Shown piece by piece: positions 4,646-63,854 of a DNA stretch of 64,000 nucleotides. The stretch comes from an uncultured Planctomycetales bacterium. Lineage in GTDB: Bacteria > Omnitrophota > Gorgyraeia > Zapsychrales > Fredricksoniimonadaceae. Positions within the stretch are counted from its first letter, which is position 1. Each line of letters opens with the position of its first letter. Position numbers and translations under genes: made by a program. The notes under the pieces are model-generated. The model was not told the DNA's origin, ran no database searches, and was given only the letters and a program-made list of their open reading frames with translations. Where the stretch lies: the NCBI GenBank assembly GCA_964572155.1, contig CAZNDZ010000003.1:138224-202223 (forward strand). Reading direction: 5' to 3'.

Positions 4646-4647
4646 GC

Positions 4648-5574: not shown

Positions 5575-5580
5575 AAAAAT

Positions 5581-41244: not shown

Positions 41245-41788
41245 CTAAAACTATTCTAACGGCATCGTGCAAATTGGCAACCACATAATCAGGTTTTGCA
41301 CCTTCCTTCAAAGCGAGCGCTTTGGTGCCCTTCCCTGATAAAACCAAGATGGTCCGAAATCCAGATGCCTGTCCTGTTTTAATATCAATGGGTGAATCTC
41401 CAATAAAGAAACTCCCCTTTAAATCTAAAAGGCGTTTCCCCAAACTTGCCGCGGCTTTTTGCACATTGGCAATCCCTGGTTTACGACAAGCACATTTGTC
41501 GTCGGGGTGATGTGTGCAATAAAAGCTTTTATGGATACGTCCGCCCGCTTTTACAACACCACGATGCAAATGTGCGTCAATTTGGTTGAGTTTTGCTTGG
41601 GTAAAACGACCACGGCCAACCCCAGCTTGGTTAGAGATAACAAAGACTTTATATTGATGTTGGGTTAAATCTGCAATGGCTTGTAATGAGCCAGGTATGA
41701 AATGAAAATCTTTGACCCGCGTGACGTAATCGCCATGTCCGGGGAATTGGTTGATCACCCCATCACGGTCAAGAAAAACTACATTCAC
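41201..41788 (-). CDS. gmhB: D-glycero-D-manno-heptose 1,7-bisphosphate phosphatase (HAD family)
   Basis: VFLDRDGVIN motif I; zinc-binding CTHHPDDKCACRKP; 195 aa. Confidence 0.8.
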   Translation of the reverse strand: MNVVFLDRDGVINQFPGHGDYVTRVKDFHFIPGSLQAIADLTQHQYKVFVISNQAGVGRGRFTQAKLNQIDAHLHRGVVKAGGRIHKSFYCTHHPDDKCACRKPGIANVQKAAASLGKRLLDLKGSFFIGDSPIDIKTGQASGFRTILVLSGKGTKALALKEGAKPDYVVANLHDAVRIVLDENPRHTRHSRSRS

Positions 41789-42546: not shown

Positions 42547-42548
42547 AA

Positions 42549-43649: not shown

Positions 43650-44712
43650 ATACGAAACTCACCTTTCTATATACGTCCTCTACAGACAAGTCTTTTAAAC
43701 AACTAAAGTGTTCACACTGAGCTACAAAAAATCGCTTATAACACGGCTGACATGCTAAATTTTTCTTAACAACCTCATGACCAGCCGACGGATAGGGGCC
43801 GTAAACTTTTTCATCAACTGGACCAAAAATACTGATCGTCTTGACACCGCTGGCAACGGCCACATGTAAGGGGCCACCATCGTTAAGCACAGCTAAACTA
43901 CAATATTTCAATAAAGCTGCCATTTGCAAGATCGATGTTTGACCAACCGCGGAATAAACTGGTGAGGCTGCCAGAGAGGTGATCTCTGTTGCTAACCCTT
44001 GTTCCTTGGCATCACCGAATAGTATAACAGTGACACCTAGATCCGCAATCATTTTATCAATTAACTGTGCATATTTTGCCGCAGGCCAACGTTTTCGTTC
44101 TGCACGACCTCCCCAACTAGCACCGCCACCTGGCACAACCGCAACCAACTTAGAAACTTGGCTTATGTCATTGTTAACCAACCATTGCCCTGCCCAAATT
44201 TCCTCATCTTTACCCACATTCAGACGCATTGCCTTAACAACAGCAGGCACGTCAATAAACTTTAATAAATCAAGGTAATATTCAACAACATGTTTATTTT
44301 CATAGCCTTTAAGCTCTATTTTATGGGTTAACATGATCCCTCGACCCTTAAAATCATAGCCGATGCGCATCTTGATCCCTGCAATCCATGCTAAACAACC
44401 AAACATACGGTTTAAGGAAAAATCAACGGCAACATCGCAACGTTCTTGCCGTATGGCGTCGATAAAAGCAAACCATCTTTTTGCGTAGGCAAAAAAATTC
44501 TTTTTCCGCGCTTTAACAAACTCGTCGCGTTCATAAGATATAACATTGTCTACATTTGGATTTGATTTGATAAGAACAGCGGTGCGGTCATTGGCGATGT
44601 AGGAAATCCGCGCAAGTGGATATTTTTTCTTGATGTTGGCGATAACAGGATCTGCAAATAAACAATCACCGACACCAAAAGGATTGATAATTAGAATACG
44701 ATTGAATGTCAT
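43630..44712 (-). CDS. GT9 ADP-heptose:LPS heptosyltransferase family
   Basis: ILIINPFGVGDCLFADPVI N-terminus and C-terminal GGGASW...NDGGPLHVA motifs typical of RfaC/RfaF/RfaQ. Confidence 0.85.
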   Translation of the reverse strand: MTFNRILIINPFGVGDCLFADPVIANIKKKYPLARISYIANDRTAVLIKSNPNVDNVISYERDEFVKARKKNFFAYAKRWFAFIDAIRQERCDVAVDFSLNRMFGCLAWIAGIKMRIGYDFKGRGIMLTHKIELKGYENKHVVEYYLDLLKFIDVPAVVKAMRLNVGKDEEIWAGQWLVNNDISQVSKLVAVVPGGGASWGGRAERKRWPAAKYAQLIDKMIADLGVTVILFGDAKEQGLATEITSLAASPVYSAVGQTSILQMAALLKYCSLAVLNDGGPLHVAVASGVKTISIFGPVDEKVYGPYPSAGHEVVKKNLACQPCYKRFFVAQCEHFSCLKDLSVEDVYRKVSFVYEHSVH

Positions 44713-46275: not shown

Positions 46276-47856
46276 TCAAATCTGATTTGATAATAATATA
46301 TGTCGTGCGATATTGTCCGCCAAAATACCCGCACCTTTCGGCGTGCAATGACCAAAATCCCCAGCAAACGCATCTGTGAAATATGTTTCATATTTTCCCT
46401 GTGTTAATGCTTGCTTAAAGATGATGCCATTATCAATAAATAAAACCCCCTTAGTAACATCAAGCATTTTCTCTAGACCATGTGTATGGCGCGTCGCATA
46501 CGAGGACACCACCATGTCAATATGGTGGCCTTGAACGATCTTTATAATCTGTCGATAATTAGAAATCGTTGCATTTAATGGCTTCTTTTCACTGAGAGCA
46601 TCAGCCATATTAATATAAACCAAAGCCTTATCTTTCATATCCGTTTGATTATAAATATTAGCTAAACCACGAATAATTTCTACACTCTGGGGATACTTGA
46701 CTAGCGCATTTTTTAAGACCACCTCTGCCCTTGAGAATTGATTGCGTTTCATATACCAATCAACCAAATCTAAAATCACATGCAGACGATCACCTTTTTG
46801 AACATTTTTACTATCAATCTCTGCTGCTGTATCGATCATCGCTTCCATATCATCGTATCGCCCTTGGGCCCCATAACAAAACCCTAGTTGTGCATAGATT
46901 TTTGAATTTTGCGGTGCTTTAAGCTTTGCTTTTGCATATAAATCCTCTGCATCAGAAAAACGTGCTTGTTTGGTATAAAAAGACCCAAGCTCTATAAAAA
47001 TATCCATGTCATCAGGATTTTTATCAAGGCCATCTTTTAATGCTCGCTCAGCCAAAACCTCTTTTTTCTGGTCAGCATAAAATCGGCTTAAGAGTGCATA
47101 ACTCCAAGATTTCTTGGGGTTCTTTGACACCGCCAATAAATATAGCTTTTCAACTTCATCAACTCGCCCTTGTAACAGATAAACCTTTGCCAACTGCTCG
47201 TAGCCCCAATCTTTCTTTGGATTGATTGAAATGCCCTTCTTAAACAATGCCTCGGCCAGCTTAAATTCTCTTTGTTCAATATAATATTGTCCTAACTCGA
47301 TATATGCCCCAGAACCTTTGGGATGAATTTTAATTTCTTTTTTCAATCGATCTATTGCTGATAACGGTTTAGCATCTTGACCCAATTCTTGCATGATGTG
47401 TGCCCACAAAAATTTTCCAACCCTAATAATACGAATATCGCCTATCGCCACTTTAAATTTATCCGACGAAGAATCTGTATAAGCAACCGTGTTATCGCTA
47501 TCATTAATGCCCACCATAGCGATCACCATATTCGGCTTGTAGAGTTCGATGTCTTTCTTTAAATTTGCTACAATATCTGCAGAATCACTCCCAGGTATGC
47601 CTCGATTAATCACCTCAAAACGTTTTCCTTTTGCTCGATCATTTAAGATGCGCTCTAACTGAGATGGATACGATTCTTTGCCACCAGCAAATGTCGTCGA
47701 CTCTCCAATACACATGATCCGATAAGCATGCGCGTCTTTTAAATGCGCCTTATTCTGATAATCTTGAATAGAAATCGATGCTGCGCCACCTAGACGTAAA
47801 AATAGCTCTAGGCAAAATAAAAATAGCAGTGGTCTTATGATTAATCGTATTGTCAT
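46276..47856 (-). CDS. Secreted SGNH/GDSL hydrolase whose catalytic domain is split by an about 250-aa TPR-repeat insertion; PatB/AlgJ-like partner of the adjacent MBOAT
   Basis: Signal peptide; block I CIGESTT, block III GINDSDN, then TPR repeats, then block V GDFGHCTPKG (DxxH) at C-terminus. Confidence 0.65.
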   Translation of the reverse strand: MTIRLIIRPLLFLFCLELFLRLGGAASISIQDYQNKAHLKDAHAYRIMCIGESTTFAGGKESYPSQLERILNDRAKGKRFEVINRGIPGSDSADIVANLKKDIELYKPNMVIAMVGINDSDNTVAYTDSSSDKFKVAIGDIRIIRVGKFLWAHIMQELGQDAKPLSAIDRLKKEIKIHPKGSGAYIELGQYYIEQREFKLAEALFKKGISINPKKDWGYEQLAKVYLLQGRVDEVEKLYLLAVSKNPKKSWSYALLSRFYADQKKEVLAERALKDGLDKNPDDMDIFIELGSFYTKQARFSDAEDLYAKAKLKAPQNSKIYAQLGFCYGAQGRYDDMEAMIDTAAEIDSKNVQKGDRLHVILDLVDWYMKRNQFSRAEVVLKNALVKYPQSVEIIRGLANIYNQTDMKDKALVYINMADALSEKKPLNATISNYRQIIKIVQGHHIDMVVSSYATRHTHGLEKMLDVTKGVLFIDNGIIFKQALTQGKYETYFTDAFAGDFGHCTPKGAGILADNIARHILLSNQI

Positions 47857-47859
47857 AAT

Positions 47860-49260
47860 CTAAAATTGAAAATAAATAAACTCTTGGGCATTCATCACTC
47901 CCCAGCCTATTAATAAATATGTCATCCCTGCGTAAATCACCGTCTTAAGCACCCAGTGTTGTTTAAAAATCACCATTAAATCGTTTGTCTTAGCTTGCCA
48001 AATCTGAACCATTAACAAAGGCCCAATAAATGATATTAACTTTAACCACAAGACGCCTTGCTGACTAAGCTTGAAATTAAAAAATATCGCCTTTAACATC
48101 TCAATAACTTGCCCCATGGATTGAGCTCTAAACAATAACCATCCTAAAACCACAAAATGAAAAAATATGATGACCTTAAAAAATGATCCACCGTGCGCTT
48201 GTGCTTTATCCTTGGTTATAAACCTGTGCGCAATCAATAACAATGCTTGATACGCACCCCAAGCAACAAATGTCCACGCTGCACCGTGCCAAATACCTCC
48301 GAGCAACATGGTCAACAATAAAGCGATGTACATGGTGCGCTTGCCGTTTTGATTCCCACCTAAAGGAATATATACATAATCTCTTAACCACGTCGACAAA
48401 CTAATGTGCCAACGTTTCCAGAATTCTTTTGGATTTGAGGCAAAATAAGGCAAATTAAAGTTAATTGCGATCTCAAAACCCATGCATTTACCCAAACCAC
48501 GCGCCATATTGGAATATCCATCAAAATCACAAAAAATTTGAAAAGCAAACGCATATAATGCCACCATCACAACACCCCCTTCATAAGGACCAGGCGATGC
48601 AAATACAGGATTAACAATTTTAGCTAGATTATCAGCCACAAACATCTTCTCGAACAATCCCCAAAAAAAAAGAAAACATCCTTCATAGACACCGTTTATT
48701 GTAATTGTCCTTGGGGTGACAATCTGGGGCAAGAAGCTCTTGGCACGCATGATGGGTCCCGCCACCAAATGTGGGAAGTAAATGACAAATAATAAGTAAT
48801 CGCCATACTTTTTAGCTGGTTTAATCAAACCGCGGTAAACATCGACGGTGTAACTGATGGCCTCAAATGTATAAAAAGAAATACCTACGGGAAGGATAAT
48901 ATTTAAAACAAAGGTACTTGCCGGAGAGACTAGATGCAAACTTTCAAGTACAAGCGTAACATTCTCAATAAAGAAATTAAAATATTTAAAGAAGCCCAAA
49001 ATCGACAAATTGACAACGATGCTAATAATTAAATACTTTTTCTTATCTTTTAACAATGAGCTTAGCGCAATGCGTTTAGCACAAAAATAATCCACGCTAA
49101 TTGAAATCAACATCAAAGCCAAAAACTTCCAATTCCATGACGCATAAAAGAAACAGCTAGCAACAATTAACAAACGATTCTGCCAGCGATGCTTGAGCAA
49201 CAAATACAGCCCATACACGATTGTGAAAAAAACCAAAAATTTAAAGGAATTGAATATCAT
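47860..49260 (-). CDS. MBOAT family membrane-bound O-acyltransferase (AlgI/DltB/PatA-like); likely start at MIFNSFKF (track start is GTG at 49278)
   Basis: WHISLSTWLRDYVYIPLGGN and GGIWHGAAW hallmark MBOAT motifs with catalytic His. Confidence 0.9.
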   Translation of the reverse strand: MIFNSFKFLVFFTIVYGLYLLLKHRWQNRLLIVASCFFYASWNWKFLALMLISISVDYFCAKRIALSSLLKDKKKYLIISIVVNLSILGFFKYFNFFIENVTLVLESLHLVSPASTFVLNIILPVGISFYTFEAISYTVDVYRGLIKPAKKYGDYLLFVIYFPHLVAGPIMRAKSFLPQIVTPRTITINGVYEGCFLFFWGLFEKMFVADNLAKIVNPVFASPGPYEGGVVMVALYAFAFQIFCDFDGYSNMARGLGKCMGFEIAINFNLPYFASNPKEFWKRWHISLSTWLRDYVYIPLGGNQNGKRTMYIALLLTMLLGGIWHGAAWTFVAWGAYQALLLIAHRFITKDKAQAHGGSFFKVIIFFHFVVLGWLLFRAQSMGQVIEMLKAIFFNFKLSQQGVLWLKLISFIGPLLMVQIWQAKTNDLMVIFKQHWVLKTVIYAGMTYLLIGWGVMNAQEFIYFQF

Positions 49261-49280
49261 ATTTAAAATATAATGCACAC

Positions 49281-49955
49281 ATGCTACAACGCAAAAAGAT
49301 CATCTTTATATGCATATTGTTATGTATCAGCTTAATAACATTATTTTACCTTTCTCCTGAGCAAACATCGCCAATACGCGTTGCATGCGTTGGCGACAGC
49401 ATTACATCGGGTTCCGGAACGCAGGATAGATCACAAGATAGTTACCCTGCCCAGCTCGCACGCATGCTTGGCAAAGACTGGGATGTAAAAAACTTTGGAG
49501 CAAATGATACAAGTATTCTTTCTAAAGCAATAAAACCCTACACAAAAAAACGAGCTTTCAAATTAGCCAAAAGTTTTAAACCACACATTGTAATTATTTG
49601 CCTTGGCACCAATGATTCAAAACCAGAAAATTGGGCACATCATTCAGACTTTACAAATGATTACATAGCATTGATCAAGAAGTTCCAACGCCTACGTTCT
49701 CATCCGCGCATCTTTCTTTGCTTACCGCCCCCAGCTTTTACATCAGCATATGGCATCAATGACTCAATTATTAAAGAACAGATCATCCCTATGATCATAG
49801 ATATTGCCAAAAACACCAATGTCGAAACCTTAGACCTCTATAATGCCTTACAGGACAAACAAGACTTATATTTTGACAAGATTCATCCCAACACGCAAGG
49901 TTACACCATCATTGCCGAAAAAATCCACGATTTGCTCACCAAAAAACTCAATTAA
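49281..49955 (+). CDS. Secreted SGNH/GDSL hydrolase (O-acetyl esterase, Ape-like)
   Basis: Signal peptide; ACVGDSITSG block I, GTNDS block III, DKIHP block V. Confidence 0.8.
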   Translation: MLQRKKIIFICILLCISLITLFYLSPEQTSPIRVACVGDSITSGSGTQDRSQDSYPAQLARMLGKDWDVKNFGANDTSILSKAIKPYTKKRAFKLAKSFKPHIVIICLGTNDSKPENWAHHSDFTNDYIALIKKFQRLRSHPRIFLCLPPPAFTSAYGINDSIIKEQIIPMIIDIAKNTNVETLDLYNALQDKQDLYFDKIHPNTQGYTIIAEKIHDLLTKKLN

Positions 49956-52321: not shown

Positions 52322-53401
52322 TTACGTAACAACTTTCTTATAAACTTCATGTGTTTCTCGTGCAGTTTTCTCAAATGAAAAATCTAAAGCCCTTTTTAAA
52401 GCTTTTGATTTATAAGAGGCGCGCAAATCCGAATCTCCTAAAATACGCTGTAACATGCTAGCTATAGTCGATGGATCATTAGGATCAATTAATAATGCCG
52501 CATCTTTGGCAATCTCCCCACAACTCGAAAGTGAAGAACTCACCACACATGCCCCTGCGGCAAATGCCTCTATAATCGGAAAACCAAACCCTTCATAAAA
52601 AGACGGAAATACAAATGCTGTGCAGGTATTATAAAGGAAATTAAGCTCTTGATCACTGATAAATCCCGTAAAGATCACCTGAGACTCGAGCCCCATCTCT
52701 TTAATTTTCGCCGCAACATCGTCACTCTTCCATCCTTGCATCCCAACTACAACCAAAGGCACCTTAGTTTTTGACTCCGCCATAGCATGAACCAATCCTA
52801 ATAAATTCTTGCGTGGTTCAATAGTGCCAACAAATAATAAAAAGTCACCCTGTATGTTTTTTGTCTTTAAGAAATTCTTTGCCTGAGATAAATCTTTAAG
52901 GGCATGAAAAATATCATGATCAACACCATTATGCACAACACAAGAACGTTCTTTTGGAAATTCAAAGAAGCGATGCAGATCACTGCGTGTACTCTCTGAA
53001 ACGCAAATGATCCGATCAGCACGTGCCACAATCCCCTGCATATACTTTTCGGTTAGATCTATGGTTTCTTGAGTATGACTTTGCGGATATGTCCGATAAA
53101 TCATATCGTGGATGGTCACCACAACTTTACCGTTGAAGCTTTCTATGTCGGCAGGACTGGGCAAGTGATACAAATCACCCCAAGGCAGAGGCCTTGAAGA
53201 ATGATGAATGACACGATGAAAATTGGGATAATTAAAACGTGGGAGCTTACGTTTAAAATCAAAACGCTTCTTTTGCGCATAAAGCATGTAATCATTGCTG
53301 GCGTCCATCTTGCCTAATTGATCGATCAAATTGTACGTATAGCGTCCAATGCCCGTACGGTTACTTAAAAGAATCGATCGGCAGTTAACAACAATGCGCA
53401 T
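52322..53401 (-). CDS. GT4 family (GT-B fold) glycosyltransferase
   Basis: FVGTIEPRKN and EGFGFPIIEAFAAG EX7E motif. Confidence 0.85.
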   Translation of the reverse strand: MRIVVNCRSILLSNRTGIGRYTYNLIDQLGKMDASNDYMLYAQKKRFDFKRKLPRFNYPNFHRVIHHSSRPLPWGDLYHLPSPADIESFNGKVVVTIHDMIYRTYPQSHTQETIDLTEKYMQGIVARADRIICVSESTRSDLHRFFEFPKERSCVVHNGVDHDIFHALKDLSQAKNFLKTKNIQGDFLLFVGTIEPRKNLLGLVHAMAESKTKVPLVVVGMQGWKSDDVAAKIKEMGLESQVIFTGFISDQELNFLYNTCTAFVFPSFYEGFGFPIIEAFAAGACVVSSSLSSCGEIAKDAALLIDPNDPSTIASMLQRILGDSDLRASYKSKALKRALDFSFEKTARETHEVYKKVVT

Positions 53402-53406: not shown

Positions 53407-54600
53407 TTAAACTGAATACCCTTTGCTTTTTAAGAATTTACCAACCACGTCGATCACATGGTCCATCTGTGAAATTTCAATGTCTTGATGGCAGCCGATG
53501 TGGGTTCCGTTGTCAGAACAGAATTCTGTTTCTGGGAAATCACCTAACTTATGACCCATGAATGCATAGCTTGGGGTTTGTGTGGGGATGGAATAGAACA
53601 AATTACGGGAATCAACACCTTCTTTCTCAAGATAGGTGACAAATTCATCTTTGGTAAATTTCATCCCTGGGCGCACGATCATGGAGAATGCATGAGGGCC
53701 TAATTTTTCATGGGCATCTTCTTGAACATAGATAAAATATTTCTCAAATTGCTTAAAGTGCTTGATCAAATATAAGATATTGCGACGACGTTTTTCTAAG
53801 ATGTCATGAAAAATTTCAATATTACCTAAACCCACCGCAGCTTCAATCTCATTCATCTTGGCAGAGAATCCAATACGCTCAAAACGGAATTTACCGTCGA
53901 TGCCATGATTACGCAAACTAGCAGCTGCCTTCGCCATTTGTTCATTGTTGGTGATGATCATGCCACCTTCGATCGTTGTAACAATGTGTGCAGCATATAA
54001 TGAGAAACATGCCATATCACCGATGGCACCAATTTTTTTGCCATTATATTCAGCACCATGTGCTTCGGCGGCATCTTCAATCACATACAATTTATGTTTT
54101 TTAGCGATGGCCATGATTTGATCCATCGCCGCAGGTTTTCCCATCAAATGTACGGGCATGATCGCGCGCGTGCGTGGGGTGATCGCGGCTTCTATCTTAT
54201 CGGGATCAATATTTAGCGTATTGCGATTCACGTCGACAAACACTGGTTTGAAACCTGCTTGCAACACCGCATTGCCTGTTGCCACAAAGGTTAATGCAGG
54301 GATGATAATCTCATCACCACGCTTGGCGCCAAAATCATATAAGACCGCACAGGCAATAGCATCAGCATCTGTTCCAGATGATACAGCAATCCCATATTTC
54401 ACGCCAAAGGTCGCGGCAAATCTTTCTTCAAACTCTTTTACATATTTACCCTTGGTTAACCATTTTTCGGCAATGGCCACATCGATTAACTTCTTGGCTT
54501 TTTCAGTGATCGACACTGTTCCAAATGGAACCTTATAATTGGCCTTCTTCGCTTCTTGTCCGTCGGAAATCGCGGTTGCTTTATTAAAATCTGTTTTCAT
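53407..54600 (-). CDS. DegT-fold PLP/PMP enzyme with His replacing the Schiff-base Lys: NDP-4-keto-6-deoxy-sugar 3-dehydratase (ColD/E1-like) rather than aminotransferase
   Basis: ACFSLYAAHIVTTIEGG, His205 (codon at 53986-53988) aligned to Lys of 42549-43649 and to the active-site His of ColD/E1. Confidence 0.65.
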   Translation of the reverse strand: MKTDFNKATAISDGQEAKKANYKVPFGTVSITEKAKKLIDVAIAEKWLTKGKYVKEFEERFAATFGVKYGIAVSSGTDADAIACAVLYDFGAKRGDEIIIPALTFVATGNAVLQAGFKPVFVDVNRNTLNIDPDKIEAAITPRTRAIMPVHLMGKPAAMDQIMAIAKKHKLYVIEDAAEAHGAEYNGKKIGAIGDMACFSLYAAHIVTTIEGGMIITNNEQMAKAAASLRNHGIDGKFRFERIGFSAKMNEIEAAVGLGNIEIFHDILEKRRRNILYLIKHFKQFEKYFIYVQEDAHEKLGPHAFSMIVRPGMKFTKDEFVTYLEKEGVDSRNLFYSIPTQTPSYAFMGHKLGDFPETEFCSDNGTHIGCHQDIEISQMDHVIDVVGKFLKSKGYSV

Positions 54601-55310
54601 TTAAGCTCCTTCAAGTGTTCTTGGGCCCACGCATAACGTTCTGGGGTGCCGATATCAATAAACTTATTTTGAACTTCAAACCCATAAAATCCTTGTTCTA
54701 CCAAGTGTGGGAAAAAGTCATATTCAATTGAGAACTTCTCAGGGGTTTTAACCAAATCAAAAACATTGCGGTTAAAACAATACGTACCTGTATTAATCAA
54801 AGCAGATTTCACCTCGGGTTGTTTTTCTTTAAAAGCGGTGATCTTGCTTTTACCGTCTACTTCGATCGTACCATAATCCCGCGCATCATCTAAACGTGTA
54901 ACGGCAATCGTTGCTTGTGCATGATTGTCATCATGAAACATGACAAGCTGATTATAATCGATCACGCAAAAACAGTCACCGTTCATCGCCAGAAATTTGT
55001 CTGTTTTAACTAACCCAGATCCCTTCTTAATAGCACCACCGGTACCAAGTGGCGTCTCTTCTCGGGAAAAAACCAACTCTAAATTTTTATGTGCTCCCTG
55101 CAAATGACGCTCAACAGCTTCTGCGCCATGGCCTGTGCATAAAATAAAACGGCGGCCACCAAAGGACGCCAAATATTCAATCAAAATAGAAATAAAGGGC
55201 TTATCACCAACTTGAACCAACACTTTCTGCTGGCCCCCTGTGACTGACGCTAATCGCTTGCCTAAACCACCGGCTAAAATGACTATATCAACATTAGATA
55301 AACGCGACAT
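54597..55310 (-). CDS. Sugar-1-phosphate nucleotidyltransferase, HddC-like (D-glycero-alpha-D-manno-heptose-1-phosphate guanylyltransferase)
   Basis: 237 aa; IVILAGGLGKRL N-terminal NTP-transferase motif; size and context with HddA. Confidence 0.7.
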   Translation of the reverse strand: MSRLSNVDIVILAGGLGKRLASVTGGQQKVLVQVGDKPFISILIEYLASFGGRRFILCTGHGAEAVERHLQGAHKNLELVFSREETPLGTGGAIKKGSGLVKTDKFLAMNGDCFCVIDYNQLVMFHDDNHAQATIAVTRLDDARDYGTIEVDGKSKITAFKEKQPEVKSALINTGTYCFNRNVFDLVKTPEKFSIEYDFFPHLVEQGFYGFEVQNKFIDIGTPERYAWAQEHLKELK

Positions 55311-55312: not shown

Positions 55313-56311
55313 TTATTTAACAACGCCTGTATCTGGCTGGAAGAAAATAATTTGACTGCCTAAATTCTCAAACTTGATCGGGACTTCTAATAATTTCTTT
55401 AACGCACTACGCACTTTATCTTGTTTATGTGGTTGCACGAAAAGCAGCACAAAGCCACCACCGCCAGCACCTAAAAGTTTACCGCCAATAGCTCCTGCGC
55501 GGATGGCTGTGGCGTACATGTCATCGATATTATCCGTTGATATTTTATCTGACAATGTGCGTTTTAATTTCCAACTCTCATCTAACAATTTGCCGAATTT
55601 TAAAATGTTTTTACCATTTAAGATCTCAAGCGCTTCGCCTGCCATTTCATACATACGGCCAAGCTCTTGTTTTTTATTTGGAATGTTCTTAATTTGATGT
55701 TGTGCGATTTGAGACGCTGTTCTCGAAAATCCGGTAAAGAACAACATCAGATGATCTTGCAATAAATTTAATTTCTCAATGGGCAACGTCACCGGTTGAA
55801 CGCGCAAATGATTCTGCCCACCAAACTCAATGTAATTAAAACCACCGTATGCCGCCAACATTTGATCTTGGCATCCGACATTTTCTTTAATCATATCTTG
55901 TTCAATGTGAATCGCTTCTTTGGCCAATTGTTCTTTGGTTGTCATGCGACCTTTAAGCGCATAGAGCGAATTTAACAATCCGACGGTAAATGACGAACTG
56001 GAGCCTAAACCGGTACGCGCTGGTAAATCCCCATCATGATGAATTTCAACGCCTTCTTTAATTTTAAGGTAACGTAAGACTTCGCGAACAGAAGGGTGAT
56101 CAATGTCATTGATGCCGTGCACATGTTCCATCTTGGAATAGATGATGCGGCTCTTATGTTCAAAGAATGGTGGCAAATAACGGCAGCTGATATAACAATA
56201 CTTATCAATGGTGGTGGCCAAGACAGCGCCTTTATGTTCATTAAACCAACCATTGTAATCAGTTCCGCCGCCAAAGAAAGACATGCGAAACGGTGTGCGT
56301 GAAATAATCAT
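55313..56311 (-). CDS. hddA: GHMP kinase, D-glycero-alpha-D-manno-heptose 7-phosphate kinase HddA-like
   Basis: MIISRTPFRMSFFGGGTD N-terminus nearly identical to HddA consensus MIISRTPLRISFAGGGTD; GHMP motif PARTGLGSSSS. Confidence 0.75.
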   Translation of the reverse strand: MIISRTPFRMSFFGGGTDYNGWFNEHKGAVLATTIDKYCYISCRYLPPFFEHKSRIIYSKMEHVHGINDIDHPSVREVLRYLKIKEGVEIHHDGDLPARTGLGSSSSFTVGLLNSLYALKGRMTTKEQLAKEAIHIEQDMIKENVGCQDQMLAAYGGFNYIEFGGQNHLRVQPVTLPIEKLNLLQDHLMLFFTGFSRTASQIAQHQIKNIPNKKQELGRMYEMAGEALEILNGKNILKFGKLLDESWKLKRTLSDKISTDNIDDMYATAIRAGAIGGKLLGAGGGGFVLLFVQPHKQDKVRSALKKLLEVPIKFENLGSQIIFFQPDTGVVK

Positions 56312-56320: not shown

Positions 56321-57829
56321 TTAAACAGTAGAGGTTTCCAAAATCTTGCGTTTTAATTTAATTTGCGTCGACTTCAATGTTTCATCGACAGCAATTTGAC
56401 CGAACTTTGTCTTTAATAAATCTAAGAATTTAGGATTCGTGTGATACTTCATCCATGCTTCATCACGGAATGCCAAAACTTGGTTTGCACTTAAATATTT
56501 TGTCGGCAAAGGTTGGCATTCATAGGAATGCTGTGAAAACCCTGCATAACTCGACGGGAGTTTCCAACCTTCTTTCTTGGCAATCCCATACAAAGGGCTA
56601 CCTGGATAAGCCATGGCTGAATAAAAATTAGCTTCTTCGGTATTCATTTCAATCGCCAAATCAAGCGTCATCTTCATGCTGTCAATATCATCTTCAGGAA
56701 GACCAAAGATATAATTACCAATGACATTGATGCCATGATCGCGAATTTTCTTAACGACGGCATGAATATCCACATCATCAAATCGACCCTTGGTCACATC
56801 TTTACGCACACGGGTATTGCCGCTTTCAATCCCTAAAGCCAACCAATTAACCCCTGCCTTCTTTAATGTGGCTAAATATTGGTCTTTAACGGTATCGACA
56901 CGTGAATAACACCAGATATTAAATTTATAACCGCGCTCAATGATCATTTCGCAAATGCGCATGAAGTGATCCGCACGTAAAACGAAAAGCTCGTCGGCAA
57001 TTTTAATATTCGTAATGCCCTGAGAAGCAAAGAAATCAAATTCTTTAATGATATGCTCTGGATCCCAATAACGGAAAACTGCCGAACCGTCGGAGAATTC
57101 ATTCTCTTGACGATTGATGATATTAATCATACAGAAAGAACATTTCATCGGGCAACCAAGCGACGTGTATAACGCGGCAAACGGTTGACGCTGTGAATTA
57201 TTCGGATACGAATGCCACAATGCGGTGCGATAATTCTTTATCGGTAATAAATCCCAAGCAATGCCTGGCATTTCACGCGGCAAATCTGCTTTTGCGACAA
57301 TGGGCGATGGTTTATTTAAAACAATTTGACCATCTTTTCTCCAACCTAACCCATCGACTAAATCCAACTTATCTTTCAAATTGGTTTTAAGTAAATTTGA
57401 TAACGTGTAAACCCCTTCGTTTTGACAAACGAAATCAATGGCAGGATGATTTTCTAATACTTCACGCGATAATGCTGATATATGACCACCGACAAATGCA
57501 ATTTTAATCGATGACGCATTAGCTTTAACCAATTCAGCTAAACCAATCGCGCCGGCCATATTTTGAGAACTGGCTGATGGTTGTTGACCGTAAACAACAA
57601 AACAAACAACCTTAGGGTTAGCTTCTTTGATCTTACTGGCAGCTTGCTCATCGCTTAAATGCAAGGCTTCCGCATCTAAAATATCGACGGAGAAACCTTT
57701 AACACGGCAATGACTGGCCAACATGCCCGCCCAAATAGGAGGCTCTATCGCCGAATAATCTTTCGCTAAATCTTGGTAGATTTTGCGTGAAGCGTTGGGA
57801 TGAACAAAGAGGATATCGAGTTGGCTCAT
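56321..57829 (-). CDS. Cobalamin-binding (class B) radical SAM enzyme, candidate sugar C-methyltransferase
   Basis: 502 aa; N-terminal B12-binding-like Rossmann domain; CPMKCSFC (CxxxCxxC) radical SAM cluster motif. Confidence 0.8.
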   Translation of the reverse strand: MSQLDILFVHPNASRKIYQDLAKDYSAIEPPIWAGMLASHCRVKGFSVDILDAEALHLSDEQAASKIKEANPKVVCFVVYGQQPSASSQNMAGAIGLAELVKANASSIKIAFVGGHISALSREVLENHPAIDFVCQNEGVYTLSNLLKTNLKDKLDLVDGLGWRKDGQIVLNKPSPIVAKADLPREMPGIAWDLLPIKNYRTALWHSYPNNSQRQPFAALYTSLGCPMKCSFCMINIINRQENEFSDGSAVFRYWDPEHIIKEFDFFASQGITNIKIADELFVLRADHFMRICEMIIERGYKFNIWCYSRVDTVKDQYLATLKKAGVNWLALGIESGNTRVRKDVTKGRFDDVDIHAVVKKIRDHGINVIGNYIFGLPEDDIDSMKMTLDLAIEMNTEEANFYSAMAYPGSPLYGIAKKEGWKLPSSYAGFSQHSYECQPLPTKYLSANQVLAFRDEAWMKYHTNPKFLDLLKTKFGQIAVDETLKSTQIKLKRKILETSTV

Positions 57830-57831: not shown

Positions 57832-58761
57832 TTAGATATTCGCGTACTGGTTGCGTTTAATGACTTGGTAGCCTTTGATGAGTTCAGCGATGCCAGCTTG
57901 CAAGCTTACACTTGTTCTAAAGCCTGTTTTTTCAATCTTTTCATTGCTGACAATGTAATCGCGCTTATCTGGATCTTCGCCGATGGTTGCTTCCACAAAA
58001 TAAAAATCAGGAACTAACTTTTTAATCTCTTGGCACAACTGCAATTTTGTTAAATTTGCATCACTAAGTCCAACATTATAGGGTTGCTTTTTCATCTTGT
58101 CAAAATTATTCAACCCATGAACGAAAGCGCGGGAAATATCGCGCACGTGAATGTAGTTACGGTTAAAATGCGCTTCAAATAAAACCACAAAACGATCATA
58201 CACCGCACGATAGGTAAAATCATTAACCAACAAATCTAATCGCATGCGAGGTGAAACGCCAAACGCAGTGGCTAAACGCAACGTGATGCCGCCTGCATCT
58301 AAGATAGCATTTTCAGCGTCCACTTTAAGTTTTCCGTACAAAGAAATTGGACGCAATGGTGTCTCCTCGGTGCAATGCTTGCCCTTTTCACCCACCCCAT
58401 AACCGCTATTGGTGGTTGGGAAAATCATCATTTGCTCTTTAGACTTCAAATCAATGATCATGTTAATGGAATCTAACAAGATGGTCGTCGCACCCACAGG
58501 ATCTTTGGCACATAATGGCGCGCCGGTTAAACAAGCCAGTGGAAAGATCGCATCAACGCTCTTCATCAGTTTAGTGATTAAGACTTTATCGCGCGTATCC
58601 CCACGAATGATCGTCAATTTTGGATGATGGCAGCAATCAAGCAGCGAAGATTGATTGTACATAAAGTTATCTAAGGCAATGACCTCGTGCCCTTCGTTTA
58701 ACAAAATTGGCGTTAAAACCGACCCAATATACCCTGCCGCACCCGTAACTAAAATTTTCAT
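57832..58761 (-). CDS. NAD-dependent epimerase/dehydratase family SDR
   Basis: MKILVTGAAGYIGS, YGKLK catalytic YxxxK. Confidence 0.8.
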   Translation of the reverse strand: MKILVTGAAGYIGSVLTPILLNEGHEVIALDNFMYNQSSLLDCCHHPKLTIIRGDTRDKVLITKLMKSVDAIFPLACLTGAPLCAKDPVGATTILLDSINMIIDLKSKEQMMIFPTTNSGYGVGEKGKHCTEETPLRPISLYGKLKVDAENAILDAGGITLRLATAFGVSPRMRLDLLVNDFTYRAVYDRFVVLFEAHFNRNYIHVRDISRAFVHGLNNFDKMKKQPYNVGLSDANLTKLQLCQEIKKLVPDFYFVEATIGEDPDKRDYIVSNEKIEKTGFRTSVSLQAGIAELIKGYQVIKRNQYANI

Positions 58762-59691: not shown

Positions 59692-60276
59692 TTACTGGCT
59701 GGTTTTCATACCTTTGGCATAATACTCTTCGTTATAGTAGTTGCCGTGTTCAATGATGAGCGTCGACTTTCCGTCGGTGCGCGTTAATGCTTTCTGATAT
59801 GCTGGGAAAATTTGATCCGCTGTATCAAGTTCAATGACTTCGATCCAATGAAATAATGCACGAAATGCTTGTGCGTAATTCCCAATATGTTGATGCCCTG
59901 GGTGCACTGGCGCATCAGGACCTGTTGCCACTCTAATGATAACTTTAATCGGCCATTTACCTTCGCTGACATCTGGCATCTTATCAATCATATTAGCCAT
60001 ATCCGCCGCCGCTAACATCAAAAAGTTTTGTCTAGGATAAACCGAAACAGGTATATATCCTGCCAATGCCATCCCTAAGGTAAACTGCATTTGAAAGCTT
60101 TCATTGATGGGCATTTCAAGCGTGCGGTCTTTAGGGCAATCCCTCAAGGTTTGAAACATGAATGTGCCAGGCCCTGCAACGGTTTGACCAACAAACTGCA
60201 CCTTATCTTGAGTGGCAAGCCACTCCATGGTGCGTTTTAATTCATCAAAATATTTGAGTTGTGTGGATGTTTCCAT
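59692..60276 (-). CDS. Transketolase-like TPP enzyme, pyrimidine-binding (Pyr) domain subunit
   Basis: INESFQMQFTLGMALAG (catalytic Glu region like TK VREFGM) and GPDAPVHPGHQ. Confidence 0.55.
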   Translation of the reverse strand: METSTQLKYFDELKRTMEWLATQDKVQFVGQTVAGPGTFMFQTLRDCPKDRTLEMPINESFQMQFTLGMALAGYIPVSVYPRQNFLMLAAADMANMIDKMPDVSEGKWPIKVIIRVATGPDAPVHPGHQHIGNYAQAFRALFHWIEVIELDTADQIFPAYQKALTRTDGKSTLIIEHGNYYNEEYYAKGMKTSQ

Positions 60277-60278
60277 AA

Positions 60279-60890
60279 TTAGAACTTAATGAGCTTACCC
60301 AAACCTGAATGTGGATAGCCGTTGGTGTATTTGAAATATATGATCTTCTTTTCGTATTTTGTCCCCTTAAACCAAGGATCAGGTGAGCCCCATGTTTCGC
60401 GGGTATTGGTCATGACGGACACACCATTATCTCCGACGATAAAGACCGCTGGTAAATCAAAATTACAAGCATATTTAACCGCTTCATGGAAAATGCCTGT
60501 TTCAGCTGACATATCACCACAAAAAAGAAAAGCCCGACCTTTTTTACCTTGATTCTTAAGCGACCATGCGACCCCTGTAGCCGTACCCATTAAGGAACCG
60601 ACAATACCTGAGCATAAAACTTTCTTTTCAGGGAAACATAAAGAAATGCTGCGACCTCTAAGAATCGCATCTTTGACATCTTTGGCAGGAACACCTTTAA
60701 GTAACGCTAATTCATGCGAATCCCAGAATCCAAAAATATAATCATCATCATTGATATCATAATCTTTGAATATTTGAATTAACGCATCTTCACGGCCAGA
60801 ACGCAAATGCACAGGTGCACGGATAACGCCTGTTGCAAAAACGTCAGCAATATCTTTTTCAAAAGCAATGATTTCTTCTTTAGTTAACAT
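60279..60890 (-). CDS. Transketolase-like TPP enzyme, diphosphate-binding (PP) domain subunit
   Basis: APVHLRSGREDAL and FLFCGDMSAETGIFHEAVKYA...VFIVGDNG TPP-binding GDG-X-N motif. Confidence 0.65.
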   Translation of the reverse strand: MLTKEEIIAFEKDIADVFATGVIRAPVHLRSGREDALIQIFKDYDINDDDYIFGFWDSHELALLKGVPAKDVKDAILRGRSISLCFPEKKVLCSGIVGSLMGTATGVAWSLKNQGKKGRAFLFCGDMSAETGIFHEAVKYACNFDLPAVFIVGDNGVSVMTNTRETWGSPDPWFKGTKYEKKIIYFKYTNGYPHSGLGKLIKF

Positions 60891-60925
60891 AAACGTTGGT
60901 TAGTATAACAAAGTCACTATTTTGG

Positions 60926-61558
60926 TCAAGCCAAAATAGGCAATATTAGTCTCCTTAAGAATAATCCAATACTCCCCCACATAGTGATAAACCATAACGG
61001 CAAGCCTATGACATGAACTCCTGGGTATCCCCAAATCCCAAAACCAACCCCGACATATTCAATAACAGCGCCCATCAAAACAAAATATCCTACATAGATT
61101 AAATCATATCGCTCATGAAAGAAAATTAGACTTAAACCCATTAAAGCAAAGGTCACATACGTCAATAATGATTGATCTGCAATGCATGAAAAACTTAATG
61201 CAAACCCCACGGCAAACATCCCAGCTACTATTTTATTGGTTTTAGGTTGTGGCCCACCCAATAATCGCAATCCATGTAATACATAAAAACCATACATCAA
61301 ACATTCCCATACAGGAATACCAAGAAAGTCTGGGTTTTTAAAATAAAACACACCTTGTTTCACCGCCATGACATCTAAGACAGAGAATACTGAACAAACA
61401 CTAAAAAATAAGATGATCTCCTGAAAGACTAGCGGATTAAATGTGATCAGCCACAGAACACAAAAAGCGACCGCTTTAACATAATTCCCAGGAACCACAA
61501 CCAAAATGGCGATGGTTAGTATCAGTTGGGTTATGTATTTTAACTGTTGAGAGTTCAA
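60926..61558 (-). CDS. Small polytopic membrane protein of unknown function, translationally coupled (ATGA) to the FAD oxidase gene
   Basis: 210 aa; about 6 TM helices. Confidence 0.45.
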   Translation of the reverse strand: MNSQQLKYITQLILTIAILVVVPGNYVKAVAFCVLWLITFNPLVFQEIILFFSVCSVFSVLDVMAVKQGVFYFKNPDFLGIPVWECLMYGFYVLHGLRLLGGPQPKTNKIVAGMFAVGFALSFSCIADQSLLTYVTFALMGLSLIFFHERYDLIYVGYFVLMGAVIEYVGVGFGIWGYPGVHVIGLPLWFITMWGSIGLFLRRLILPILA

Positions 61559-63192
61559 TTGGCAGAATAGCGACGAGGCGCAATGATCCCTTGAGGGTCA
61601 ATCGCATCTTTAATTGTTTTTTGCATCGCCCAAAATGTTTTATCCACGTTAACCAAATCCCCCATCATGTCAATATTGGCACGATATGGAAAGAACCCAA
61701 GTTTACGACCCTCTTCTAAAAGCTCAGCAAAACACGCCTTGGCTTGAGCGACTTCCGTTGGATTTTGTGGATTAAATAAAATCGGCACCGTGCTATCAAA
61801 ACATCGGTCTGATAACGTCGTCAAGGTAATGAGCGGCTCTATGCGATGCTTCACGCAAACTTGATTCACAAAATCAACATACGTACGCACGGTTTCTGGC
61901 TTCATGGGCACTAAGGGTGCATACCATATCAAACCACAACCATCTCGTGCGGGATTAAGTTCTGAAGTATCAGGCAATCCCAACGGCATCTTGCGATAAC
62001 ACAACGGCAAGGCGATTTGATTGGGCCTTCCCTCTAAGATATCAAAAGATAATTTCATTTTTTGAATACGGTTTAATGATGTCTTTGTCCATTGCGCTGG
62101 TAAACATGATAAAATCTTCTCTAGGAAATTTAATTGTCCTCGAGAAAGAAAAATCAATCGCTTGGTGTGTGGATAAACTTTATTGCGCAACACCCGCTTG
62201 GCAACATCCACCATTTCTTTCTTACCATAAAATGATCCCAAACATGTCCATGGTGCAAAATCCATATCTGTTGCCATCTTCTTTAGGATGTTGACATAAT
62301 TAGCTGGGTCTTTATCAATTTCTTCAAACGGATAATATGCGCTCATCGATAAAAGGCGCAAAGAATTCATAATATTGATAGATCCCGTCACCCCGCCAAT
62401 CTCGCGCAATGTCTCACGCACCAAAGCCACGGCTTTCTCAAGGTTCTTTTCATCACGCATCTCAAAGATAAATGCCCCGACCGACTCCGGACGCGCAGCT
62501 AATTGAATGGTGATCTTGGTGACTATGCCAAAGTTACTTTGGGTAAATAATCCATCTAAATAAGGGCCAATGCCCCACTTAAATATCTGGTCAACATTAA
62601 TGCAGTCTTGTTCATAGATGGCTGAATGATAGATGCTCCCATCGGGAAGCACGGCCTCTAAACTCATGAGCGATAAGAAATGATCTGAAATAGGCGTTAA
62701 TCCATAGCCGCGTTCTAAGGCATTCCCTAAAATACTTGCATGAGGACCAGCACCTGTGACGGGCGTTAAATATGCATCATCATGTTCTTTAAGGAACTTA
62801 GACAACAATTCTTGCGTTACCCCAGGCTCAACGGAAACAGTACCGAGATCCGCATCAAACTCTACGATGCGATCCATCCCTGAAAGATCTAAGATAACAC
62901 AGCCATTGGTCACTGGGTTGGCTGAACCATATCCCCAATTATTCCCCTTGCTTATTGGATACAGCGGCACTTGATATGTCGATGCCACTTTAACGATGGC
63001 CACAATCTCGTCAGTTGTCTTTGCTTGTAACGTACAGAAAATTTGGCGCGGCGCACATGCGGTTGTATCTTGAGTGTATTTAACCAAAGCCTCTTGATTC
63101 ATTAAGACGCGAGCATCACCTAAAATTTTTTGCCAGCTAACAATCGCTTGATTAATCTGTGTCATGTCGGTCATTGGACAATCCTTCTCCAC
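61555..63192 (-). CDS. FAD-linked oxidase (PCMH/vanillyl-alcohol-oxidase superfamily, FAD_binding_4 domain)
   Basis: 545 aa; N-terminal FAD-binding region TTDEIVAIVKVASTYQVPLYPISKGNNWGYGSANP. Confidence 0.8.
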   Translation of the reverse strand: MEKDCPMTDMTQINQAIVSWQKILGDARVLMNQEALVKYTQDTTACAPRQIFCTLQAKTTDEIVAIVKVASTYQVPLYPISKGNNWGYGSANPVTNGCVILDLSGMDRIVEFDADLGTVSVEPGVTQELLSKFLKEHDDAYLTPVTGAGPHASILGNALERGYGLTPISDHFLSLMSLEAVLPDGSIYHSAIYEQDCINVDQIFKWGIGPYLDGLFTQSNFGIVTKITIQLAARPESVGAFIFEMRDEKNLEKAVALVRETLREIGGVTGSINIMNSLRLLSMSAYYPFEEIDKDPANYVNILKKMATDMDFAPWTCLGSFYGKKEMVDVAKRVLRNKVYPHTKRLIFLSRGQLNFLEKILSCLPAQWTKTSLNRIQKMKLSFDILEGRPNQIALPLCYRKMPLGLPDTSELNPARDGCGLIWYAPLVPMKPETVRTYVDFVNQVCVKHRIEPLITLTTLSDRCFDSTVPILFNPQNPTEVAQAKACFAELLEEGRKLGFFPYRANIDMMGDLVNVDKTFWAMQKTIKDAIDPQGIIAPRRYSAN

Positions 63193-63854
63193 ATCGAAAA
63201 GAAGTCGTAGAATTTAATGATAAACCAATTGATAAAAAACCATGCATAAACAAACAAGAAACCTAATGGAAAAACTGCGTGGCCATAATCAGGCAAGAAA
63301 TCAATGACACTTAAATAACAAATCACATACCCCAATAACATGAGCCGTATTTTATTTCGCTCAACACGATCTTGCGCTCTACCTAAATGCACAACCAAAT
63401 TAACAAGTGCCATCAAACCAAAAATACCAAAGTATACTAAGAATATTGGATGCAATACCCCTGCATTAAACCAGAAACCCCAAGGATATACACGCGCCTG
63501 ATCAACCAACAAGTTTGTTGCTAACAACGGGATAAAAAGAACTGCTCCGACGTAATATCCCATCTTAATAAACTTACGTTGTGCCTCTATCTGAAGAAAA
63601 CTAACCACCAATTGATAGGAAGCCACGGATAAAAAAACGCAACCGATGTACGCAATGCGCGAAAAGAATGTTGCCGCAACCACGTCATGTGCCGTTAGCA
63701 CAAAAAAACTACCCATCTGCCAAACAAATCCACAGAACACCTGAACCAAAAAAGCATCTCGGGTCAATGACTTCTCATGCCTGCCTAAAACAAAGGCTGC
63801 CATCACCAAACAAAGGCATGAACAAAACAAATACCCTAATGCTAAACCACTCAT
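63171..63854 (-). CDS. Polytopic membrane protein of unknown function (7-TM)
   Basis: 227 aa; 7 hydrophobic helices; ATGA overlap with upstream partial gene. Confidence 0.45.

Follow-up and report, generated by a model that had tools for sequence, protein, structure and literature searches.

In the biosynthesis of several antibiotic sugars, thiamine diphosphate (ThDP)-dependent E1-type pairs of the alphaKADH2 class transfer an acetyl group from pyruvate to keto-sugars, as established in vitro for KbDH and by genetic or feeding evidence for AviB1/B2, Pau11/12 and aldgamycin (PMC12247030, PMC4425429). The class comprises the aldgamycin (AlmDI/DII), avilamycin (AviB1/B2), paulomycin (Pau11/12), everninomicin (EvdU5/EvdS3) and KbDH-alpha/beta enzymes, which attack C3 or C4 of the sugar and leave a branch ketone that is later reduced, methylated, oxidised or transaminated (PMC12247030, PMC4425429, PMC10338323). 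YerE adds acetyl from pyruvate to CDP-3,6-dideoxy-4-keto-glucose, which is followed by reduction (PMC9306805), and in Campylobacter jejuni HS:5 the enzyme Cj1427 and a C3-dehydratase produce GDP-D-glycero-4-keto-3-deoxy-heptose (PMC10680097). Here we describe two adjacent genes encoding a minimal ThDP enzyme, hereafter mini-E1, in a 64,000-nucleotide stretch of DNA (the window; contig CAZNDZ010000003.1, positions 138,224 to 202,223) from an Omnitrophota genome deposited as an uncultured Planctomycetales bacterium. The pair lies in a heptose-type nucleotide-sugar operon and, by analogy with the systems above, we propose with a probability of roughly 55% that it decarboxylates pyruvate and adds the resulting hydroxyethylidene-ThDP to C4 of a GDP-(3-deoxy-)4-keto-heptose.

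The two open reading frames (ORFs), 2 nt apart, lie where a preliminary description of this DNA had placed a split, minimal, transketolase-like ThDP enzyme with a pyrophosphate (PP) domain followed by a pyrimidine (Pyr) domain and without a C-terminal domain, an arrangement on which Pfam, fold and active-site residues agreed. By sequence and predicted fold the pair corresponds to cut-down E1 alpha and beta subunits. The Pfam E1_dh match of alpha was limited to positions 9-178 of the 300 in the profile, accompanied by a marginal match to DXP_synthase_N (the 1-deoxyxylulose-5-phosphate synthase family, DXS; E 0.004) and another to the generic TPP_enzyme_C. Neither ORF matched the transketolase C-terminal domain (PF02780) in Pfam, and the pair gave no match to Transketolase_N (PF00456). 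The NCBIfam models for pyruvate dehydrogenase (PDH) E1 alpha and beta scored the pair at 62 and 31 bits, where the cut-offs exceed 320; the PDH_E1_alph models scored alpha at 62 and 49 bits, with cut-offs of 394 and 411, and no curated Pfam or NCBIfam model covering a short E1 form matched. The closest PDB sequences were PDH E1 alpha (1w85, 5e-8) for alpha and E1 beta (1ik6, 3e-6, or 1ni4_B) for beta. AlphaFold models reached a pLDDT of 94.3 for alpha and 85.9 for beta. The 50 top PDB fold matches of alpha were, without exception, E1 alpha subunits of PDH or of branched-chain 2-oxoacid dehydrogenase (BCKDH), with a template modelling (TM) score of 0.75-0.79 over the query and about 0.45 over the target, and no transketolase was present among them. 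For beta, the best folds were E1 beta (TM 0.74, rmsd 3.1 Å), AzcB/C ranked 12th (TM 0.61) and a split transketolase appeared in 50th place. Thus, the earlier assignment stands as far as a ThDP-type PP/Pyr pair is concerned, but its nearest relatives are the alpha and beta subunits of PDH/BCKDH E1 and, in view of the sequence matches and the models, E1-like is a more exact label than transketolase-like.

The truncation affects both subunits. Beta stops after the Pyr domain (194 aa in the window, about 178 aa in most relatives) and has lost the C-terminal domain, which docks E2 in metabolic E1 enzymes. When alpha was aligned with a full-length E1 alpha of 296 aa encoded in a sugar cluster (locus L052, 30% identity), the N-terminal extension was found to be gone and both an internal segment of about 20 residues and a C-terminal tail of about 40-50 residues were deleted. 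Single-chain alpha-beta fusions of about 380-410 aa, in PP-then-Pyr order and with the key residues kept, occur naturally, from which we conclude that the two ORFs make up one enzyme.

Judged by alignment, the ThDP cofactor and catalytic residues are all kept in the pair. The motifs quoted in the preliminary description were present throughout, PVHLRSGRED (28-35), GDMSAETG (125-132) and GDNG (153-156) in alpha, and INESFQM (57-63) and PDAPVHPGHQ (120-129) in beta. The Mg/diphosphate motif of alpha reads GDM (125-127)-x27-DN (154-155), and in family alignments of 41 and 66 sequences G125 and N155 were invariant and D126 was conserved in at least 90%. Three histidines of alpha, H28 (PxHL), H59 (WRSH) and H194 (YPHxG), were invariant or nearly so across the family, and the C-terminal YPHSG that contains H194 aligned with VWHSG of the full-length L052 subunit, which we take to be the classical catalytic-histidine motif. 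In beta, the conserved residues were E54, E59, R82 and Q129-H130. E59, the cofactor-activating glutamate, and H130, the equivalent of E1 beta His128, did not vary in 35 of 35 diverse sequences, and the INES stretch aligned onto ISEM of human E1 beta. Signs that would have spoken for another class, namely ComDE/Ppd-type halves, a Pyr-first order or lost ThDP residues, were looked for and not found.

In a clustered database, 825 relatives of alpha were retrieved at E<=1e-3. The best 120 shared 79-93% identity and measured 202-220 aa, most of them exactly 203 aa, and those carrying a name came from Candidatus Omnitrophica; database labels of relatives read 'hypothetical', 'thiamine pyrophosphate-dependent enzyme' or 'PDH E1'. 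Alpha was encoded in 46 species-level genomes at 71-93% identity, all of them Omnitrophota metagenome-assembled genomes, although some are labelled 'uncultured Planctomycetales' and one 'Acidobacteria'. This conservation across 46 genomes, together with the confident models and their best superposition on E1 subunits, puts the pair far beyond chance.

The pair opens a cassette whose gene order (E1 alpha, E1 beta, GDP-fucose-synthase-like protein, short-chain dehydrogenase/reductase (SDR), B12-radical-SAM enzyme, GHMP kinase, nucleotidyltransferase, DegT protein, GT4 glycosyltransferase) was shared by about 40 Omnitrophota species; tblastn with the window proteins found it in practically all loci of sufficient length. 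The partner matches bear out the placing of the pair within a heptose-type nucleotide-sugar operon. The SDR, two genes downstream of beta, matched PDB 6VO6/6VO8 with an E value of 2e-119 over 308 aa; 6VO6 is presumably the C. jejuni protein Cj1427 (Huddleston et al. 2020), which acts as a GDP-heptose C4-dehydrogenase (PMC10680097). The kinase matched the PDB heptose-7-phosphate kinases 4n3o/3k85/4usk at 1e-33 to 1e-36, and both NCBIfam matches of the nucleotidyltransferase were below cut-off. The DegT protein matched GDP-perosamine synthase in the PDB (6e-65) and had RfbH as its best NCBIfam model. Its motif FSLYAAHIVTTIEGG aligned with FSFFGNKIITTGEGG of GDP-perosamine synthase 3BN1, placing a histidine opposite Lys186, the Schiff-base position that is mutated from lysine to alanine in 3DR4. 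Histidine at this position is the signature of the pyridoxamine phosphate (PMP)-dependent 3-dehydratases ColD and E1. The same replacement was found in 23/24 Omnitrophota, 32/33 diverse and 13/14 viral DegT relatives from mini-E1 loci (68 out of 71 altogether), and the cassette DegT is predicted to be a C3-dehydratase. A role as C4 or branch aminotransferase was rejected, since histidine replaces the catalytic lysine; the second DegT of the window (42549-43649), outside the cassette, has the normal lysine.

The fucose-synthase-like protein matched Escherichia coli GDP-fucose synthase (8e-78) and the C. jejuni heptose C4-reductases MlghC/DdahC (7ANC/7ANH, 1e-71; PMC7949155), and it retained the Ser/Tyr/Lys triad and the cysteine, but it carried VGHKEAIENS in place of the NADPH-binding GxxGxxG and a glycine at the equivalent of His179 of GDP-fucose synthase. 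The degenerate loop was kept in about 40 Omnitrophota orthologs, whereas orthologs found beside mini-E1 in other phyla had an intact loop (AGHxGxVGS). The radical-SAM enzyme fell under every NCBIfam cut-off, HpnJ being its best model (153 bits), and also showed similarity to the diol-dehydratase AprD4. The GT4 gene was 43-68% identical and syntenic in most long Omnitrophota loci. A promoter-like site in the 35-nt gap before alpha is consistent with a conserved cassette beginning at that gene; it is weak evidence, as the total number of sites in the promoter/terminator scan was not above the shuffled expectation.

Table 1. Position of mini-E1, its cassette partners and the promoter-like site in the window.
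Feature	Coordinates	Strand	Basis
mini-E1 alpha, PP domain	60279..60890	minus	203 aa; Pfam E1_dh 6e-13; fold match E1 alpha
mini-E1 beta, Pyr domain	59692..60276	minus	194 aa; Pfam Transket_pyr 2e-7; fold match E1 beta
GDP-fucose-synthase-like SDR, degenerate NADPH loop	58758..59687	minus	NCBIfam GDPFucSynFcl 365 bits, cut-off 500
Predicted GDP-D-glycero-D-manno-heptose C4-dehydrogenase (4-keto former)	57832..58761	minus	PDB 6VO6/6VO8, 58.4% identity
B12-binding radical SAM enzyme	56321..57829	minus	Pfam B12-binding + Radical_SAM
HddA-like GHMP sugar kinase	55313..56311	minus	NCBIfam HddA 2e-44, under cut-off
HddC/ManC-like sugar-1-phosphate (guanylyl)transferase	54597..55310	minus	NCBIfam mannose-1-P guanylyltransferase 2e-42, HddC 9e-40
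DegT-family protein, His for Schiff-base Lys	53407..54600	minus	predicted PMP-dependent C3-dehydratase, ColD/E1 type
GT4 glycosyltransferase, last gene of cassette	52322..53401	minus	Pfam Glycos_transf_1/Glyco_transf_4
Promoter-like site TTGACC-16-TATACT, TG-extended	60902..60929	minus	consensus scan, 35-nt gap before alpha

Mini-E1 was not confined to Omnitrophota. An exhaustive search of 50%-identity representatives returned 1482 relatives, 297 of them at E<=1e-10; the best 150 of the 1482 were mostly around 200 aa long and included alpha-beta fusions and intein-bearing members. Profile searches with alpha and with beta each yielded at least 8000 candidates. The best 120 matches of each were short proteins, and the named sources included Paceibacterota/Parcubacteria, a Woesearchaeota archaeon and Tara ocean samples. 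Altogether, mini-E1 recurred in bacteria of the candidate phyla radiation (CPR), a DPANN archaeon, marine bacteria, viral contigs (at least 521 confirmed matches in IMG/VR) and two cultured cyanophages. Seven out of seven sampled contexts were nucleotide-sugar clusters, and about 120 loci besides the window had the pair set among nucleotide-sugar genes. In the Paceibacterota locus, the SDR, the B12-radical-SAM enzyme and the kinase were 63%, 41% and 61% identical to the window proteins, respectively, and DegT, alpha, beta, nucleotidyltransferase, GT4 and SIS isomerase genes were also present. In the DPANN locus (L136), the stop codon of an SDR overlaps the start of alpha; the best match of this SDR was GDP-D-glycero-D-manno-heptose 4,6-dehydratase (7US5, 1e-80), and its relatives in other variant loci shared 40-57% identity.

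A metagenome scan and a viral scan yielded 80 loci each, out of more than 500 confirmed matches per scan. Neighbours were counted in 79 non-redundant loci from other lineages, whose alpha sequences were less than 90% identical to one another. A beta ORF was found in 66 of these 79 loci. A Cj1427-like C4-dehydrogenase (>=40% identity) occurred in 40 and a 7US5-like 4,6-dehydratase in 20, so that one or the other 4-keto former was present in 57, as compared with 35 loci containing a kinase, nucleotidyltransferase or SIS gene for sugar activation. The gene immediately before alpha was most commonly an RmlC-like 3,5-epimerase (24/79) and in 11 loci a radical-SAM enzyme, a relative of which was present anywhere in the locus in 25; the C4-dehydrogenase took position -2 in 16. 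With regard to DegT, 26 non-redundant loci carried the histidine type, none the lysine type, and in 52 no relative was detected. An acceptor supplied by a neighbouring keto-sugar enzyme, a trait of the alphaKADH2 class, is thus indicated in the window as well as in the 57 loci, and the GDP-4-keto-sugar acceptor suggested in the preliminary description finds support in this neighbourhood and in the predicted C3-dehydratase. The recurrent set of a 4-keto former, often a 3,5-epimerase, a His-type 3-dehydratase and a ThDP enzyme follows the same logic as yersiniose biosynthesis.

Several variant forms were observed. Alpha and beta are adjacent in cellular loci, whereas in 49 of 74 viral loci they are split by one to several genes (SDRs, unknowns), the typical viral order being C4-dehydrogenase, RmlC-like epimerase, alpha, other genes and beta. 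The cultured T4-like cyanophages P-TIM68 (L217, KM359505, 9049-10194) and S-SM2 (L218, GU071095, 8971-10179) encode a single-chain alpha-beta fusion, annotated 'transketolase central region-containing protein', within a heptose-type cassette that also comprises a zinc-dependent alcohol dehydrogenase, a kinase, a nucleotidyltransferase, a phosphoheptose isomerase, epimerases and glycosyltransferases. A mini-E1 homolog is also present in the 735-kb uncultured megaphage LR756501. Among relatives such as P0150, P0159 and P0219, some have inteins (LAGLIDADG or splicing/Hint domain) inserted in alpha, and one has an N-terminal fusion to an APH-family kinase. The soil-metagenome cluster L052 (1991-3783 and 8001-9157) encodes a full-length E1 pair (296/301 aa, beta with C-terminal domain) in addition to a mini-E1 pair, which suggests two distinct ThDP steps in that pathway. 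In a widespread marine locus (L047, 142-5713; 57 contigs, Tara samples) the mini-E1 pair stands beside two other ThDP enzymes, one a split transketolase and one acetolactate-synthase-like, and the three adjoin genes of the GDP-heptose type, among them an NTP-transferase-HAD fusion. A search of plasmids yielded E1 genes of full length only, and a search of viral folds (BFVD) with mini-E1 gave no significant match. A 192-aa 'transketolase' of Campylobacter phage CP21 (I7KLL3) showed weak likeness to the mini-alpha fold there (E 2e-3, TM 0.54). The phage infects a heptose-rich host, and its protein may represent a further small ThDP subunit.

Taken together, the yersiniose-like gene set and the precedent of the alphaKADH2 E1-type pairs led us to propose carboligation at C4. 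In this pathway, the HddA-like kinase and the HddC-like nucleotidyltransferase, together with GmhA/GmhB encoded elsewhere, would provide GDP-D-glycero-D-manno-heptose, whose C4 would be oxidised by the Cj1427-like dehydrogenase, and the His-type DegT protein would remove the 3-hydroxyl group to give GDP-3-deoxy-4-keto-heptose. Mini-E1 would then convert pyruvate to hydroxyethylidene-ThDP and add it to the C4 ketone, yielding a 4-C-acetyl heptose. The acetyl branch could later become 1-hydroxyethyl or be otherwise modified, the product being a nine-carbon branched sugar, and the B12-radical-SAM enzyme and the fucose-synthase-like protein would be candidates for tailoring it before transfer by the GT4 enzyme.

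The enzyme class, the domain order, the intact active-site residues, the missing E2-docking parts and the linkage to GDP-heptose and 4-keto-stage enzymes are shown by the present data. It should be considered that we infer the donor, the acceptor, the site of attack, the order of the steps and the later tailoring, with donor, acceptor and regiochemistry being drawn from the neighbouring genes and from analogy, and a number of observations weigh against the proposed C4 branching. Of the 79 loci, 22 had no recognised 4-keto former in the available DNA and 52 no DegT relative. In many cellular loci a kinase directly follows beta, and this adjacency, like the fusion to an APH-type kinase, could mean a role at the sugar-phosphate level. 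The known sugar-branching E1 pairs are full-length proteins of about 300-345 aa per subunit, unlike the truncated core described here. The Omnitrophota cassette contains no obvious NAD(P)H reductase for the branch ketone, given that the fucose-synthase-like protein has lost its Gly-rich loop. Finally, the equation of 6VO6 with Cj1427 is our presumption.

These same observations can be accommodated by other readings. Mini-E1 might make or break a carbon-carbon bond on a nucleotide sugar and yet not form an acetyl branch at C4, be it through acyloin extension at an oxidised C6 or C7 into a longer linear sugar, through use of a donor other than pyruvate or through retro-acyloin cleavage. This we consider unlikely. 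Its linkage to NDP-sugar enzymes would be the same as for C4 branching, the AprD4-similar B12-radical-SAM enzyme could make a side-chain carbonyl, and the acetoin E1 Ao:DCPIP OR, of the same superfamily, cleaves acyloins (PMC12247030). However, the enzymes most tightly linked to the pair (C4-dehydrogenase, 4,6-dehydratase, C3-dehydratase) give a ring C4 ketone and no side-chain carbonyl, and those alphaKADH2 sugar enzymes that have been characterised take pyruvate as donor and act on ketones of the ring (PMC12247030). Decidedly unlikely, in our estimation, is an upstream role like that of transketolase or DXS, in which mini-E1 would form an unusual ketose phosphate, such as an octulose or deoxy-heptulose phosphate, for activation by the SIS isomerase, the kinase and the nucleotidyltransferase, much as in the lincosamide octose route. 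The octose raised in the preliminary description would come under this reading. The alpha-beta-kinase order in several cellular loci and both cyanophages, the relative fused to an APH-family kinase, the weak DXS matches of alpha and the split transketolase of the marine locus would all suit such a role. But activation genes were present in only 35 of the 79 loci, against 57 for 4-keto-stage enzymes, the immediate upstream neighbours were the epimerase and the C4-dehydrogenase, and in several loci (DPANN L136, L052 and L055) the pair is surrounded by NDP-sugar enzymes and has neither a kinase nor an isomerase close by. Besides, chemical reasoning indicates that an E1 acting with pyruvate would give a 1-deoxy-ketose that a GmhA-type isomerase could not convert to an aldose. 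The tighter linkage to 4-keto-stage enzymes than to isomerase, kinase or nucleotidyltransferase also disfavours local supply of a sedoheptulose precursor, raised in the preliminary description, and a true transketolase making sedoheptulose-7-phosphate was rejected for this reason, for lack of a Transketolase_N match and because no SIS isomerase gene was detected in the window.

A simple non-oxidative 2-oxoacid decarboxylase, supplying an aldehyde or another small building block for glycan decoration, has a slim chance of being the right description. An E1 core without E2 would release aldehyde by default and minimal split ThDP decarboxylases are known (ComDE, AzcB/C), but no conserved partner that would use up a small aldehyde, for instance a ligase or an acyltransferase, accompanies the pair, whose close and in places translationally coupled neighbours are sugar 4-keto enzymes, and the fold is of the E1 and not of the decarboxylase type. 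A decarboxylase of the ComDE/Ppd type in particular was rejected in view of the PP-first order, the lack of a match to that family in Pfam or NCBIfam (E<=0.01) and the lower fold similarity. Finally, the automatic annotation of relatives as 'pyruvate dehydrogenase E1 component alpha subunit' would be literally correct if mini-E1 were a conventional catabolic E1 (pyruvate, acetoin, branched-chain), or else a sulfopyruvate/phosphonopyruvate decarboxylase, that sits in a glycan island by chance, and this can hardly be credited. The scores of 49-62 bits fall far below the NCBIfam cut-offs of about 390-410, alpha is short by about one third of an E1 alpha and beta is without the E2-binding C-terminal domain. 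Genes for E2/E3 or phosphoenolpyruvate mutase were not found among the 48 window ORFs scanned, nor were E2/E3 genes in the gene tables of related loci, and the nucleotide-sugar context is conserved in about 120 loci. Truncation, sub-threshold scores, E2/E3 absence and genomic context thus led us to reject a conventional PDH or acetoin E1.

The window as a whole is a large glycan island that includes methyltransferase genes. Upstream of the cassette (60926-63854, minus strand) lie genes for a 545-aa FAD_binding_4 oxidase (GlcD/DprE1-like), a 210-aa multi-pass membrane protein without a family match and a HisKA_7TM-type protein with seven transmembrane segments. Outside the window this group occurred in the closest relative alone (L001, where the oxidase is duplicated), and it may be a lineage-specific addition with a lipid-linked sugar as its target; the oxidase and membrane protein (60926-63192) were rejected as members of the module because they are conserved only there. 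Likewise, the gene upstream of alpha in other Omnitrophota, an ordinary UXS-type SDR, was judged to be unrelated to the module. Farther away, positions 52-7162 contain NeuB/PseB-type nonulosonic-acid genes, GNATs and a DUF4910 protein, positions 41201-44712 a GT9 heptosyltransferase, a GmhB-like HAD phosphatase and the second DegT, and positions 46276-49955 MBOAT, GDSL and TPR genes typical of polysaccharide O-acylation.

Mini-E1 would thus be a truncated E1-type carboligase recruited to GDP-heptose pathways and widespread in ultra-small prokaryotes and viruses. In the literature that we searched, we found nothing linking a ThDP enzyme to heptose modification, or on the function of the cyanophage genes. 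Should the proposal hold, mini-E1 would be the smallest known E1-type ThDP enzyme, an alpha-beta unit counting about 380-400 residues instead of about 650-700, it would reveal what an E1 can do without after losing its E2 partner, and it could offer a compact scaffold for the biocatalytic synthesis of tertiary alcohols. ThDP-dependent C-branching of sugars, known from a few actinomycete antibiotics and enterobacterial O-antigens, would then reach GDP-heptoses as well, in a family that spans thousands of sequence clusters from Omnitrophota, CPR bacteria, DPANN archaea, marine bacteria and viruses. C4 branching moreover predicts one defined new sugar, and for an assay the literature already provides the necessary enzymes and substrates from C. 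jejuni. A more far-reaching picture, tentative and doubtful when all its parts are taken jointly, would combine a previously undescribed nine-carbon, C4-branched 3-deoxy-heptose with a surface-glycan role, viral use and an unusual enzyme cycle. The sugar would belong to a conserved surface glycan of ultra-small, host-associated prokaryotes (Omnitrophota, CPR, DPANN) and viruses, cyanomyophages among them, would also encode it as a means of altering the glycans of their hosts or virions. The truncated enzyme may take its GDP-sugar from the cofactor-less fucose-synthase-like partner, and a Cj1427-like dehydrogenase that retains NADH may be re-oxidised on the new branch ketone, closing a redox-neutral cycle of oxidation, branching and reduction.

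When set against the known systems, transketolase and DXS share with mini-E1 the ThDP superfold and the PP-first order, but both keep a third domain. The ComDE, Ppd and AzcBC enzymes have similarly small subunits (about 170-190 aa), but they are Pyr-first and reach a TM of only about 0.6, compared with 0.74 for E1 beta. The heterotetrameric E1 enzymes for pyruvate, branched-chain 2-oxoacids and acetoin are nearest by sequence and fold and have the same Mg/diphosphate motif, activating glutamate and alpha and beta histidines, but mini-E1 covers about 45% of each subunit and is without the E2-binding domain and E2/E3 genes. As for pathway context, the partner enzymes are close homologs of those in the GDP-heptose pathways of C. 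jejuni (Cj1427/MlghA, MlghB/C, DdahA/B/C and the HS:5 C3-dehydratase; PMC10680097, PMC7949155). Relative to these routes, mini-E1 would replace the C4-reductase or act before it. To our knowledge, no C. jejuni capsule pathway contains a ThDP enzyme, a B12-radical-SAM enzyme or a C-branched heptose. Yersiniose biosynthesis (YerE/YerF; also ErwE and MygE) shows the same 4-keto stage, His-type PMP-dependent 3-deoxygenation and ThDP-dependent acylation at C4 (PMC9306805), but YerE is a single-chain, Pyr-first, decarboxylase/acetolactate-synthase-like flavoprotein of about 560-600 aa, unrelated in architecture to an E1-type pair, and its substrate is a CDP-3,6-dideoxyhexose where that of mini-E1 is presumably a GDP-heptose. 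The alphaKADH2 class, with which mini-E1 was compared through published descriptions of AviB1 and KbDH, is alike in that it consists of heteromeric E1-type pairs with a PP alpha and a Pyr beta subunit, placed in nucleotide-sugar pathways near keto-sugar-forming enzymes and without E2/E3. The analogy drawn in the preliminary description with E1-like pairs that put two-carbon branches on antibiotic sugars is apt as regards the parent class (PMC12247030, PMC4425429), though not as regards an identical architecture: the known pairs are full length (325/345 aa for Pau11/12, PMC4425429), with a C-terminal domain in beta, and serve antibiotic deoxyhexoses or pentoses, whereas mini-E1 has subunits of 203 and 194 aa and would serve the GDP-heptose of surface glycans in uncultured lineages and viruses.

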